From: a virus
Taxonomy: Duplodnaviria; Heunggongvirae; Uroviricota; Caudoviricetes
Reading direction: 5' to 3' (one strand)
DNA: 44,061 nt
Virus record (IMG/VR): IMGVR_UViG_646564533_000010
In this document: positions 39,001 to 42,000 of the stretch, in pieces
Layout of the letters: each line of letters opens with the position of its first letter
Position numbering within the stretch: the first letter of the stretch is position 1
Position numbers: made by a program

Positions 39001-42000
39001 ACATACTGCTGCTGGCTGACCGTATTGCGATGATTAACCCGGAGGACGGCAACACCACGCCGTTATTTGTGGCGCAGGGGAATCAGTTGTTCATGAACGA
39101 TGTGTTCCTGAAGCGGCTGTTTGCGGTGAGTATCACCTCGTCCGGCAATCCCCCGACGTTTTCCCTGACGCCGGAGGGCAGTCTGACCGCAAGAAATGCT
39201 GATATCAGCGGTAACGTGAATGCGAATTCCGGGACGCTCAACAACGTCACGATTAACGAGAACTGTCGGGTTCTGGGAAAACTGTCCGCGAACCAGATTG
39301 AAGGCGATCTCGTTAAAACAGTGGGCAAAGCTTTCCCCCGGGATTCCCGTGCACCGGAGCGGTGGCCATCAGGGACCATTACCGTCAGGGTTTATGACGA
39401 TCAGCCGTTTGACCGGCAAATTGTTATTCCGGCGGTGGCATTCAGCGGCGCTAAACATGAGAGAGAGCATACTGATATTTACTCCTCATGCCGTCTGATA
39501 GTGCGGAAAAACGGTGCTGAAATTTATAACCGTACCGCGCTGGATAATACGCTGATTTACAGTGGCGTTATTGATATGCCTGCCGGTCACGGTCACATGA
39601 CGCTGGAGTTTTCGGTGTCAGCATGGCTGGTAAATAACTGGTATCCCACAGCAAGTATCAGCGATCTGCTGGTTGTGGTGATGAAAAAATCCACAGCAGG
39701 CATCAGTATCAGCTGAATTTTATAACCCATATACGGGCGCCAGAAATGGCGCCTTTTTTATTGCAGAAAAGCGAGAGGTAATTATGCGTAGACTTTATGC
39801 CGCCATTTTGTCCGCAGCCATTTGTCTGGCCGTATCCGGTGCGCCTGCATGGGCATCTGAACATCAGTCCACGCTGAGCGCGGGGTATCTTCATGTCTCG
39901 ACGAACGTTCCTGGCAGCGATGATCTGAACGGGATTAACGTGAAATACCGTTATGAGTTTACGGACACACTGGGGATGGTGACGTCGTTCAGCTATGCAG
40001 GAGACAGGAATCGCCAGCTTACCCGTTACAGCGATACCCGCTGGCATGAAGATTCCGTTCGTAACCGCTGGTTCAGCGTAATGGCGGGGCCGTCTGTACG
40101 CGTGAATGAATGGTTCAGCGCGTATGCGATGGCGGGTGTGGCTTACAGTCGTGTGTCGACTTTCTCCGGGGATTATCTCCGCGTAACTGACAACAAGGGG
40201 AAAACGCACGACGTGCTGACCGGAAGTGATGACGGTCGCCACAGCAACACGTCTCTGGCGTGGGGGGCTGGCGTGCAGTTTAACCCGACCGAATCCGTGG
40301 CCATTGATATTGCTTATGAAGGCTCCGGCAGTGGCGACTGGCGCACTGACGGTTTCATCGTGGGTGTCGGTTATAAGTTCTGATTAGCCAGGTAACACAG
40401 TGTTATGACAGCCCGCCGGTTCAGGCGGGCTTTTTTGTGGGGTGAATATGGCAGTAAAGATTTCAGGTGTACTGAAAGACGGCACAGGAAAACCGGTAGA
40501 GAACTGCACCATTCAACTGAAAGCCAGACGGACCAGCAGCACGGTGGTGGTGAACACGGTGGTGGTGAACACGGTGGCCTCTGAAAATCCGGATGAAGCC
40601 GGTCGTTACAGCATGGACGTTGAGTACGGTCAGTACAGCGTCATTCTGTTGGTGGAAGGATTCCCGCCGTCACATGCCGGGATCATCACCGTGTATGAAG
40701 ATTCTCAACCCGGTACGCTGAATGATTTTCTCGGTGCCATGTCGGAGGATGACGTCCGGCCGGAGGCACTGCGTCGTTTTGAACTGATGGTGGAAGAAGC
40801 GGCGCGTCACGCTGAGGAGGCGAAGAAGAATGCCGGAGAAGCAGAGACGTCCGCGAGGAATGCCGGCATATCAGCCAGTAAGGCGGAAGCGAGCGCGGCA
40901 AATGCTGACACTTCAGCAGGGGAAGCATCGGAGTCAGCCCGGCAGGCGACGGAAAGTGCAGCCTCAGCAAAGCAGTCAGAGGAGGCGTCCTCGTCCTCGG
41001 CCTCTGCGGCCGCTCAAAAAGCCAGTGAGTCATCACAAAGTGCAGCAGATGCTGAGTTGTCAAGAAAGACGGCAGAAAGTGCAGCCGGTAATGCAGCCAG
41101 GGATGCAACGACCGCAACAGAAAAAGCCCGGGAGTCAGCAGAAAGCGCACAGTCAGCGGAACAAAGCAGGATAGCGGCGGAAGAGGCCGTAAACCGAATC
41201 CCCACGGTGGTGGGGCCTCCCGGGCCAAAGGGGGAACCGGGTCCCGCGGGTCCTCAGGGGCCGAAGGGAGATAAAGGAGAGCGTGGAGACACCGGTCCGG
41301 CAGGGGCAACCGGTGAAAGGGGGCCGGCAGGTGATGCTGGTCCGGCAGGCCCGGCAGGCCCACAGGGACCGAAAGGAGAAACAGGTGCGGCTGGCCCGGT
41401 GGGGGCAACCGGACCTCAGGGGCCGAAGGGCGACCCGGGGGAGACGCAAATACGGTTCCGTCTGGGGCCGGGAAACATTATTGAGACAAACAGCCATGGC
41501 TGGTTCCCGGATACAGATGGCGCACTCATCACCGGACTGACCTTTCTTGACCCCAAAGATGCCACACGGGTTCAGGGTTTTTTTCAGCATTTGCAGGTCA
41601 GGTTTGGTGACGGGCCGTGGCAGGATGTTAAGGGACTGGATGAAGTGGGCAGTGATACAGGCAGAACAGGAGAATGACATGAATATTTTGAGAAAGCTTA
41701 TGGAGCGTCTGTGTGGTTGCGGAAAGCATGATGACTGTGAACACGGGCAGTCGCTTACAGTACAACTGCGACTGGGGCCGGCAGACATCCTGGAGTCAGA
41801 TGAGAATGGCATTATTCCGGAGCAGGACAGGGTAATCACACAGGTGGTGATACTGGATGCGGATAAAAAGCAGATACAGTGCGTGGTAAGACCGCTGCAA
41901 ATCCTACGTGCTGACGGGAGGTGGGAAAATATTGGCGGGATGAAATAGCCGACGGGTTCACAAAAACCGGAGTCCTGCTCTGGTTTTTGTTGTCACGTAT

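Follow-up and report, generated by a model that had tools for sequence, protein, structure and literature searches.

The window analysed here, a 44,061-nt stretch of viral DNA, carries between lom and a group of NleG cargo genes a collagen-like tail fibre gene and, immediately behind it, a small ORF resembling the C-terminus of that same fibre. The arrangement raises the question of what the second, shorter copy is for, and whether a 15-bp tandem duplication near the 5′ end of the fibre gene marks a site at which the fibre varies in length. Region 40448–41948 belongs to a lambda-like E. coli prophage and makes up its side-tail-fibre module, which is of a kind described previously: the fibre architecture is known from biochemical work of 2012, the small PfC gene was recorded in phage Sp5, and removed from it, in 2016, and both the fibre and the small protein are already named in Pfam, PHROG and PGAP. 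What is new is the 15-bp duplication alone, a one-off slip that no other searched sequence has. Taken together, we consider it probable, with some way to go to certainty, that the locus combines an EPclA-type fibre, a coupled PfC accessory protein and a private 15-bp slip; the practical weight of this reading is small beyond correct annotation. The features of the module are as follows.

40410..40431, + strand: intrinsic-terminator-like hairpin after lom, an 8-pair stem (7 G-C pairs) followed by TTTTTT
40448..41677, + strand: side tail fibre gene, 409 aa (PF08400, PF01391, PF06820, phrog_366, phrog_3279 ‘tail fiber protein’)
40448..40861, + strand: PfN (Stf N-terminal collar) domain, fibre residues 1–138 (PF08400 phage_tail_N, E 7e-66)
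40540..40577, + strand: 15-bp tandem duplication of CACGGTGGTGGTGAA, 2.5 copies (Tandem Repeats Finder, period 15, 100% match)
40862..41212, + strand: Ala/Ser/Glu-rich rod, fibre residues about 139–255, assigned from composition and homology to the EPclA PCoil
41213..41446, + strand: collagen-like tract of 26 uninterrupted Gly-X-Y triplets from fibre residue 256 (PF01391, E 3.4e-15)
41450..41641, + strand: fibre PfC domain with RLGP motif, fibre residues 335–398 (PF06820 Phage_fiber_C, E 2.8e-35)
41578..41584, + strand: T7 homopolymer in the fibre PfC; with one T deleted, fibre and small ORF are joined in a single reading frame
41668..41672, + strand: Shine-Dalgarno sequence AGGAG, 6 nt before the ATG of the small ORF
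41679..41948, + strand: small PfC-domain protein, 89 aa (PF06820, phrog_576)
41960..41990, + strand: terminator-like 14-pair hairpin and U-rich tract, 12 nt past the small ORF

Gene order in the window is J, lom, fibre and small gene, followed by the NleG cargo genes, and the position after J and lom is common to this fibre, the nearest E. coli prophage and Shigella prophages with PfN-type fibres. The nearest complete genome to a 24-kb query (window 20000–44061) contains an O55:H7 prophage adjoining uspF/ompN, at 98.2% identity. The upstream hairpin stands 16 nt before the fibre start and forms the 5′ boundary of the fibre unit, while the downstream hairpin, ahead of the NleG genes, forms the 3′ boundary of the two-gene unit. 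The 51-nt fold at the latter site, which takes in a small 5′ stem, has a folding energy of −21.3 kcal/mol (z −4.0) that was matched by none of 200 shuffles; a similar hairpin lies 3′ of a diverged small-protein homologue at another locus, L082.

The fibre ORF runs from an ATG at 40448 to a TGA stop at 41675–41677. The ORF listing sets the start two codons earlier, at GTG 40442; the solved lambda Stf chain, beginning MAVKISG, agrees with the ATG. The closest full-length fibre (P0136, 404 aa, 92% identity) is an E. coli ‘prophage tail fiber N-terminal domain-containing protein’, and a 494-aa E. coli protein reaches 94% identity across 93% of the query length. The top matches of the protein search are E. 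coli prophage fibres whose domains come in the EPclA order. The preliminary description had placed a fibre with a lambda Stf-like N-terminus at this position, and the Pfam match to PF08400 and the similarity to PDB 9e7m bear this out. By phmmer, PfN matches residues 1–93 of the Ur-lambda Stf (9e7m/9mgh) at E 3e-48, and 9e7m was also the top Foldseek match of the PfN AF2 model. That model, of moderate quality (mean pLDDT 64), has strands at residues 3–8, 21–28, 35–41, 53–58, 61–69 and 75–82, and PfN is predicted from it to be a beta-sandwich leading into the beginning of a helical rod. The helix occupies residues 106–138 at pLDDT 46–62, ending three residues before the end of the modelled segment (the first 141 residues). 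The pN/pS ratio is 0.10 in PfN and 0.23 in the fibre PfC.

Downstream of the collar, the Ala/Ser/Glu-rich region is present as first described, but the label ‘low-complexity’ does not suit it. It aligns with EPclA-type homologues and, by analogy, would correspond to the EPclA PCoil, a trimeric coiled coil demonstrated in that protein (Ghosh et al. 2012, PMC3368898). The Gly-X-Y tract beginning at 41213, estimated earlier at about 25 triplets, was counted at 26 without interruption; within it are a 9-bp tandem repeat (two copies of CCGGCAGGC, 41342–41359) and four G5 runs. The PfC domain covers the full PF06820 profile (1–64) and is followed by an 11-residue tail ending at 41674.

The same order of PfN, PCoil, collagen and PfC is found in EPclA (e.g. 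ECs2717 of O157:H7 Sakai), a trimer in which PCoil is alpha-helical, both PCoil and PfC are trimerisation modules, and the collagen helix refolds from the PfC knob as its nucleus (Ghosh et al. 2012, PMC3368898). The commonest allele has 37 triplets against the 26 of this fibre, and a five-residue duplication, TVVVN, in PfN was seen only in the present allele. Lambda Stf, of the Stf/Tfa pair, shares with this fibre the N-terminal collar domain and the gene position but, unlike it, has neither a collagen tract nor a PfC domain. In Ur-lambda, twelve StfN domains form a collar at the gpV/gpM junction (Yu 2025, PMC12617516). By homology to proteins in which the individual steps have been demonstrated, the fibre would be an EPclA-type homotrimer of collar, rod, shaft and knob. 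Its N-terminal beta-sandwich would dock at the tail-tube/tip junction as in Ur-lambda, the rod would form a coiled coil and the 26 triplets of the shaft a collagen triple helix, and the C-terminal PfC knob would trimerise, nucleate the collagen helix and presumably contact the host surface.

The 15-bp duplication adds five amino acids to the collar domain (TVVVN twice, residues 32–41), at the turn between beta2 and beta3 and in the beta3 strand predicted by AF2, and the alignment with lambda Stf has a five-residue gap at this site. An 8-bp repeat, CACGGTGG, occurs at 40540, 40555 and 40570. The duplication would be explained by a single replication-slippage event between these 8-bp repeats, 15 bp apart, and would lengthen the predicted beta2-beta3 hairpin of the collar by five residues. 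Many sequences (932 records at 99% identity or more) have the single-copy allele between identical flanks, and all of the 80 IMG/VR loci show a 408-nt match, equivalent to one copy. The two-copy form was seen in none of 120 representatives of fibre protein clusters, a junction-specific query had no match in 5,426 E. coli genomes, and the 38-mer spanning the duplication was absent from three contig collections (viral, genome and metagenome). The exact fibre protein, with either start codon, had no match among 15 billion proteins.

This repeat had been regarded as a hallmark of slippage-driven length variation. It is present and did arise by slippage, but fibre length does not vary there: when copy number was compared across relatives, as had been proposed, the 15-bp unit was not polymorphic, and the single copy in all relatives examined speaks against a contingency (phase- or length-variable) locus at this unit. 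The duplication is a private and probably near-neutral allele rather than a switch, a naturally occurring insertion within the Stf collar that is perhaps useful only as a marker of this strain’s prophage. Length variation of the fibre resides instead in the collagen tract, which has 15, 20, 26, 27, 36, 37 or 38 triplets in relatives and is one 9-bp unit shorter in the nearest of them.

The small protein is made up of a short helix and a CGCGKH segment (residues 1–27) followed by a PF06820 domain (residues 28–89). That it is a paralogue of the fibre C-terminus, as originally proposed, is upheld by a significant pairwise alignment with fibre residues 335–397 (33% identity, BLASTP E 1e-11 as a single comparison) and by its match to PF06820 on its own, at E 1.4e-36 and 125 bits, where the curated cutoff is 25. 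It also matches phrog_576 over positions 1–89 of 89 (E 1.3e-59), 933W L0122 is 94% identical to it, and the exact protein was found on about 998 contigs. Judged from these alignments, the small ORF is a PfC paralogue belonging to the same family as phrog_576, 933W L0122 and Sp5 ORF68. The family is very narrow, with 84 representatives among 1.84 billion proteins. A PDB sequence search with the small-protein profile returned no solved PfC structure, only chance matches at E above 0.03. PfC is an obligate trimer and the AF2 model a monomer prediction from an 11-sequence alignment, its pLDDT of 53 being unreliable and too poor for a fold search. A metal-binding motif, CGCGKH..C.H, was considered and rejected, as most alleles have Arg in place of its third Cys and the distant homologue has Phe at C12; the conserved site in the segment is G13-C14-x-K16 and nothing beyond.

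The stop codon of the fibre and the ATG of the small ORF are one base apart, a spacing found, with the window counted, in 49 of 64 fibre ORFs whose end falls inside the locus, and the 20 nt preceding the ATG are identical in 56/59 copies. The ORF is intact at 89 aa in 52/59 copies, and its pN/pS is 0.19 overall, 0.34 in the N-terminal part and 0.10 in the PfC part, where pS is 0.12. By this pattern of substitution the small ORF is a real gene under purifying selection. The objection that it might go untranslated fails on its Shine-Dalgarno sequence, the 1-nt spacing and the overall pN/pS, together with two virion peptides of a phi24B homologue (see below). Among distant homologues, small proteins are 65% identical to one another and fibre PfC domains 40%, and cross-comparisons give 30–33%. 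On these identities the duplication that gave the small gene is old, and it has left two separately conserved orthologous lineages; for that reason the suggestion that the gene is a product of module shuffling is not supported.

By analogy with other fibres and their partner genes, the small protein is likely a fibre-associated accessory or assembly protein. Its gene accompanies PfC-ended fibres built in three different ways: the lambda-type fibre here, the podovirus 933W fibre with its unrelated N-terminus (L0121/L0122), and a non-collagen 212-aa PfC protein at L082, a locus whose fibre region matched no complete E. coli genome by megablast. Where the same PfN is combined with a Peptidase_S74 end, the next gene is a Gp38_N gene. 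The partner gene thereby co-varies with the C-terminal module of the fibre, a PfC end going with a small PfC gene and an S74 end with Gp38_N, and the principle is common to this pair and to the Stf/Tfa and S74/Gp38_N pairs, in which the small partner gene likewise changes with the module. No Tfa, Caudo_TAP or Gp38 domain was detected in the small protein, a Pfam scan at E up to 0.01 giving PF06820 only; it falls outside the Tfa family, though it may work in a Tfa-like manner.

The closest parallels to the two-gene arrangement are in short-tailed Stx2 phages, where Sp5 ORF67/ORF68, 933W L0121/L0122 and phi24B gp61 with its downstream ORF all have the same collagen and PfC end followed by the same 89-aa protein. 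Those fibres are longer (about 645 aa vs 409 aa here), and their N-terminus docks on a podovirus adaptor, whereas the present fibre has a lambda-type collar. Sp5 ORF68 was noted earlier as a ‘phage fiber C-terminus domain’ polypeptide (Mondal 2016, PMC5155283). The EPclA paper is silent on a downstream small gene, and the word ‘downstream’ is absent from its text (Ghosh 2012, PMC3368898).

In our proposal, translation of the small gene is coupled to that of the fibre gene, and its product is a standalone PfC-fold protein, a putative accessory subunit of the fibre. It would be made together with the fibre and would act on the PfC knob or stay bound to it, either as an assembly helper or as a tip-associated partner. 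The logic would be that of the Tfa or gp38-type genes behind other fibres, with an unrelated fold. Two peptides of the small-protein homologue, ADGTWENIGGMK and VITQVVILDADKK, are listed in the supplement to the phi24B virion proteome (10.64898/2026.04.10.717836), where the authors label the entry ‘Spike or just gp59?’ and no gel band is given for the two peptides; they could derive from a contaminant or from a frameshift fusion. Deletion of Sp5 ORF68 abolished neither plaque formation nor lysogenisation, making the gene non-essential (Mondal et al. 2016, PMC5155283), and therefore any assembly role would be auxiliary or host-specific. Neither recombinant EPclA nor PfC on its own needs the small protein to trimerise (Ghosh 2012, PMC3368898). 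Of the three roles first put forward for the small gene, ‘chaperone’, understood broadly as a fibre accessory protein, fits best, while that of an alternative distal tip has little in its favour. Hundreds of Stx and other lambdoid phages have the small gene downstream of a PfC-ended fibre, and a position on the fibre tip would make its product relevant to the host range of Shiga-toxin-converting phages.

The alternative that survives best, though we judge it unlikely, casts the small ORF as a reservoir, a silent cassette or alternative distal tip that recombination swaps onto the fibre, changing its receptor specificity; a reservoir role was suggested for Sp5 ORF68 by Mondal et al. (PMC5155283). 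The exchange, to which we give the same low credence, would use the shared RLGP-coding motif or other microhomologies, and identical in-phase 10-mers (CTGGGGCCGG, at 41462 and 41772) and in-phase 11-mers (GGGGCCGGCAG, at 41320 and 41774) are available to it. Recombinant products also occur in nature, namely a deletion product in which collagen is joined straight to a small-type PfC (P0058, 4 sequences) and a single reciprocal-looking chimera (P0256). The small protein is, however, the more conserved of the two paralogues, both among distant homologues (65% vs 40%) and in pN/pS (0.10 vs 0.23), whereas a diversity reservoir should show the reverse. Its own Shine-Dalgarno sequence, ATG and N-terminal 27 residues are conserved, none of which a silent cassette needs, and the presence of homologue peptides in phi24B virions also speaks against silence. 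Among the 120 small-protein relatives listed, none is longer than 131 aa and no full-length fibre ends in a small-type PfC; together with the greater conservation of the small copy, this counts against the distal-tip role raised at the outset.

We find it very improbable that the two ORFs are instead one switchable gene, in which a one-base loss at the T7 run yields a fibre with a second C-terminal PfC, and no less improbable that such a T7/T8 switch operates by any of its conceivable routes (ribosomal +1 frameshifting, transcriptional slippage or DNA-level phase variation). If true, a subpopulation of virions would have a different tip, their fibre ending in the second, more conserved PfC. 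The frame of the small ORF is indeed open from 41541, 46 codons upstream of its ATG, and natural fusions of 494 and 527 aa have arisen on different backgrounds by T7 to T6 and T8 to T7 changes (P0138, P0139 and P0313/P0316/P0321, the last three on 26, 10 and 4 contigs). Entries named ‘Fusion_6159_FS1/FS2’ are also included in the search database of the phi24B authors (10.64898/2026.04.10.717836). Yet the +1 frame stays open in 21% of synonymous recodings of the fibre end, a run of five or more T is missing in 13/59 copies, a stop lies 13 codons upstream in 4/59, and the diverged homologue at L082 has a stop one codon upstream of the ATG. A fused fibre was found in none of the 64 complete fibre ORFs in IMG/VR loci, fusion cuts off the fibre’s own PfC domain, and Mondal et al. 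found no frameshift signal (PMC5155283). The nearest relative has frameshifts at other short repeats too (G5 to G6, and CA from three to four copies), and therefore ordinary prophage decay acts at such sites. Programmed frameshifting was accordingly dropped as the main reading, the slippery site and the open overlap frame not being conserved.

Cor and Llp, when encoded beside receptor-binding genes, mask the receptor. A comparable role for the small protein in the lysogen, for instance as a decoy masking the fibre receptor (superinfection exclusion), we rate marginally lower again. Its relationship to a presumed receptor-binding knob would suit a decoy, as would the moron-rich location near lom and the NleG genes, and an L-x-G-C motif at residues 11–14, also found in the distant homologue P0260, bears a superficial likeness to a lipobox. 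By inspection, however, residues 1–13 (MNILKKLMQRLCG) have no hydrophobic core (K, K, Q, R), so export is unlikely, and the idea of a lipoprotein or exclusion factor was rejected on this ground. No promoter-like site was found between the fibre and the small ORF; late expression is the likelier for the latter, given how closely it is coupled to the late fibre gene, and the homologue peptides come from virion preparations of phi24B.

Least credible of all is that an old partial duplication of the fibre 3′ end left the small ORF as a non-functional relic, kept by linkage: it is non-essential in Sp5, truncated in 7/59 copies and frameshifted in the nearest relative, but the selection analysis already contradicts this reading (pN/pS 0.10 at pS 0.12 in the PfC part), the ORF was kept at 65% identity with Shine-Dalgarno sequence and start intact where the fibre PfC fell to 40%, and it is disrupted no more often (12%) than the fibre gene (14/64 copies).

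The window, a lambda-like Escherichia coli prophage, is 98.2% identical over the full length of bases 20000–44061 to the O55:H7 prophage adjoining uspF/ompN (FDAARGOS_946, DEC5A). The side tail fibre gene and the 89-aa ORF behind it are set among the following features.

Features around the fibre gene (coordinates of the window)
36192–39716: J tail-tip protein
39735–39754: terminator-like hairpin, 5′ of lom
39784–40383: lom (PF06316)
40410–40431: terminator-like hairpin between lom and the fibre gene
40448–41677, + strand: side tail fibre
41679–41948, + strand: 89-aa small ORF
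41960–41990: terminator-like hairpin, 3′ of the small ORF (−21.3 kcal/mol, z −4.0)
42061–44061: three consecutive NleG effector genes (PF06416, U-box type III effector family), directly downstream of the fibre unit

With lom flanked by hairpins and a third one behind the small ORF, the fibre gene and its small neighbour make up a compact two-gene unit. A gap of 16 nt separates the end of the second hairpin from the fibre start, so late transcription would have to be antiterminated for the fibre to be expressed. lom itself, bracketed by two strong terminator-like hairpins, has the layout of an independently expressed moron. Two NleG genes were identified by Pfam scan and the third, which runs to the last base of the window, by similarity to those two and to the DUF1076 gene of the nearest relative. 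A small gene for the fibre C-terminal domain (PfC, PF06820) followed by NleG was also seen in Citrobacter rodentium remnants (L087 and L088, from C. rodentium and a related assembly; 2494–3237), where a 161-aa gene with a weak PF08400 match and a PF06820 match, apparently a deletion derivative of the fibre, still lies ahead of a small PfC gene (78 aa) and then NleG, in a prophage that looks degraded. At a diverged locus, L082, an NleG fragment lies ∼3 kb downstream, beyond four opposite-strand genes.

The finding is real and was correctly described in the preliminary description, but what it shows is a known module in textbook form. The Stf-type N-terminus, collagen and C-terminal domain reported there were all recovered by Pfam (PF08400, residues 1–138, E 7e-66; PF01391; PF06820 Phage_fiber_C, residues 335–398, E 2.8e-35), and for the ∼25 Gly-X-Y triplets claimed, 26 uninterrupted ones were counted from nt 41213. 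The Ala/Ser/Glu-rich region, called low complexity there, is likewise present and corresponds, as a putative coiled coil, to the “PCoil” of the EPclA class, the EHEC prophage collagen-like proteins of which this fibre is a member. When expressed, EPclA is a trimer, with PCoil and PfC (7 kDa) both acting as trimerisation modules; the CD spectrum of a Col-PfC fragment is that of collagen, with melting at 42°C, and the triple helix is re-nucleated by PfC (Ghosh et al. 2012, PMC3368898). At the N-terminus is the Stf collar domain (PfN), as matched in the solved Ur-lambda tail tip (PDB 9e7m; phmmer E 3e-48, Foldseek top match), in which twelve Stf N-terminal domains assemble into a collar around the gpV/gpM junction and contact it via the β4–β5 loop (Yu et al. 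2025, PMC12617516). E. coli carries this module very widely: part of a 1,677-nt query was found in 4,727 of 5,426 complete genomes (median two places per genome), and at least 80% of it in 692. In one protein from the representative library (P0278, 565 aa), four PfC-like domains in tandem precede a collagen-like tract, which suggests that the PfC fold also serves as a repeating shaft element in more remote phage fibres.

The 89-aa ORF is a genuine gene under constraint. Its proposed paralogy to the fibre C-terminus was confirmed by a significant pairwise alignment with fibre residues 335–397 (33% identity, E 1e-11). Across 59 copies (related loci plus the window), the ORF is intact at 89 aa in 52, and the 20 nt 5′ of it, AGGAG included, are identical in 56; its ATG lies 1 nt past the fibre stop in 49 of the 64 fibre ORFs ending within their locus. 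Pooled pN/pS was 0.19 over 43 distinct alleles (0.10 in PfC and 0.34 in the first 27 codons, with pS ∼0.13), against 0.23 in the PfC of the fibre itself and 0.10 in PfN; these ratios take no account of phylogeny, yet the signal is a large one. The gene is also already catalogued: it is a full-length PF06820 match (125 bits, cutoff 25), matches phrog_576 end to end (E 1.3e-59), is named “phage tail fiber C-terminal domain-containing protein” by PGAP, and is 94% identical to 933W L0122. The protein is present in 296 phage records, with the exact sequence on ∼998 contigs. Its Sp5 homologue, ORF68, was described as an 89-aa polypeptide made up of a phage fibre C-terminus domain, placed among the non-essential late genes, and suggested to act as a reservoir of variation in the fibre (Mondal et al. 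2016, PMC5155283).

Several observations bear on the role of this conserved PfC protein. The PfC-ended fibres that have the small gene behind them come in three architectures: the lambda-type fibre of the window, the podovirus 933W/Sp5/phi24B fibre with its unrelated N-terminus, and a non-collagen 212-aa PfC protein at L082, where the small homologue (P0260, 79 aa) has its own AGGAGG site and a 14-nt overlap with the upstream gene. Where fibres with the same PfN end in Peptidase_S74, the next gene is Gp38_N; the partner gene tracks the fibre end. Between the window and L082 the small PfCs are 65% identical and the fibre PfCs 40%, with all cross-comparisons at 30–33%; judged from these identities, the duplication is old, giving two orthologous lineages of which the small one is more conserved. 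In the proteome supplement of a phi24B cryo-EM preprint, two peptides, ADGTWENIGGMK and VITQVVILDADKK, map to the small-ORF homologue, in an entry annotated by its authors “Spike or just gp59?”. There is no strict need for the small protein: both PfC and EPclA form trimers in its absence (Ghosh et al. 2012, PMC3368898), and Sp5 without ORF68 is viable (Mondal et al. 2016, PMC5155283). Taking co-occurrence, partner tracking, old duplication, virion peptides and dispensability together, we favour a fibre-associated accessory, either an assembly helper or a tip-bound partner of the PfC knob, an interaction that we infer. Its mode of action would resemble that of Tfa or gp38-type partners, although by Pfam the protein falls outside those families.

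We consider it improbable that the small ORF is instead a reservoir or, as first proposed, an alternative distal tip for the fibre. In favour of this reading, two in-phase microhomologies, CTGGGGCCGG (41462–41471 in the fibre, 41772–41781 in the small ORF) and GGGGCCGGCAG (41320–41330 and 41774–41784), would permit exchange, and one of them accounts for the junction of P0058, a natural deletion product joining the collagen tract directly to a small-type PfC; P0256 is the converse chimera, a small-protein N-terminus with the end of a fibre PfC. However, none of the 120 small-protein relatives listed exceeds 131 aa, and the supposed reservoir copy is the more conserved paralogue. A functional frameshift fusion of the two genes is less probable still. 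Upstream of the small ORF its frame stays open over 46 codons, inside the fibre 3′ end (41541–41678), and loss of one T from a T7 run (41578–41584), or from its T8 variant, yields natural 494- and 527-aa fusions in public assemblies (P0138, P0139, P0313, P0316 and P0321, the last three on 26, 10 and 4 contigs). Yet the frame stays open in 21% of synonymous recodings, 13 of 59 copies lack the T run, an upstream stop occurs in 4 of 59 and lies one codon upstream in L082, and no fusion was found among 64 complete fibre ORFs from IMG/VR loci. Moreover, the nearest relative has ordinary decay frameshifts in the same two genes: in FDAARGOS_946 (L001, 23439–24918) both are annotated as frameshifted pseudogenes, by G5→G6 in the collagen tract (window 41230–41234) and (CA)3→(CA)4 in the small ORF (window 41837–41842), while both are intact in the window. 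In our reading the fusions reflect mutational decay at a homopolymer that by chance leaves the frame open. A lysogen-expressed exclusion factor is unlikely, as by inspection the protein lacks a hydrophobic signal sequence and no promoter-like site separates fibre and small ORF; a neutral remnant is scarcely credible, being contradicted by the pN/pS data.

The only new element is a private 5-residue duplication in the collar domain. The exact tandem repeat noted at 40541–40570 was located by Tandem Repeats Finder at 40540–40577 (perfect, period 15 bp, 2.5 copies), encoding TVVVN twice. In the common single-copy allele the 8-bp word CACGGTGG already occurs at two positions separated by 15 bp, on which slipped-strand mispairing would add a 15-bp unit; the slippage mechanism proposed is therefore sound for the origin, whereas the length variation expected of the site was absent, with one copy in all relatives examined. 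A 408-nt rather than 423-nt match was obtained in 80 of 80 related IMG/VR loci, lambda Stf has a single copy, and with a 71-nt probe (932 records at ≥99% identity) the best E. coli matches were 56 nt at 100%, the single-copy allele with identical flanks. The two-copy allele was not found with a 46-nt junction-specific probe in 5,426 E. coli genomes, nor were two copies found in any of 120 fibre cluster representatives, nor the 38-mer in viral, genome or metagenome contig collections, nor the exact fibre protein, with either start codon, among 15 billion proteins. The duplicated residues (32–41) map to the β2–β3 turn and strand β3 (35–41) of the collar sandwich (AF2, moderate confidence, pLDDT 64). 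The duplication is a single slippage event without sign of a switch.

The true length polymorphism of the fibre gene family is the collagen tract: across 53 intact fibre ORFs, that of the window and 52 others at related loci, it has 15, 20, 26, 27, 36, 37 or 38 triplets, and the pre-collagen segment is 250 residues in 50 of the 53. Within the tract, a perfect 9-bp tandem repeat (CCGGCAGGC twice, 41342–41359, encoding PAGPAG) is a single unit in the nearest relative. Compared with L001, the region at 40500–40900 is mosaic, with many differing sites over the first ∼600 nt aligned, while from ∼41060 in the distal rod onward, through the collagen tract, PfC and small ORF, there are one substitution and three short indels; this mosaic divergence suggests a recombination breakpoint within the fibre gene.
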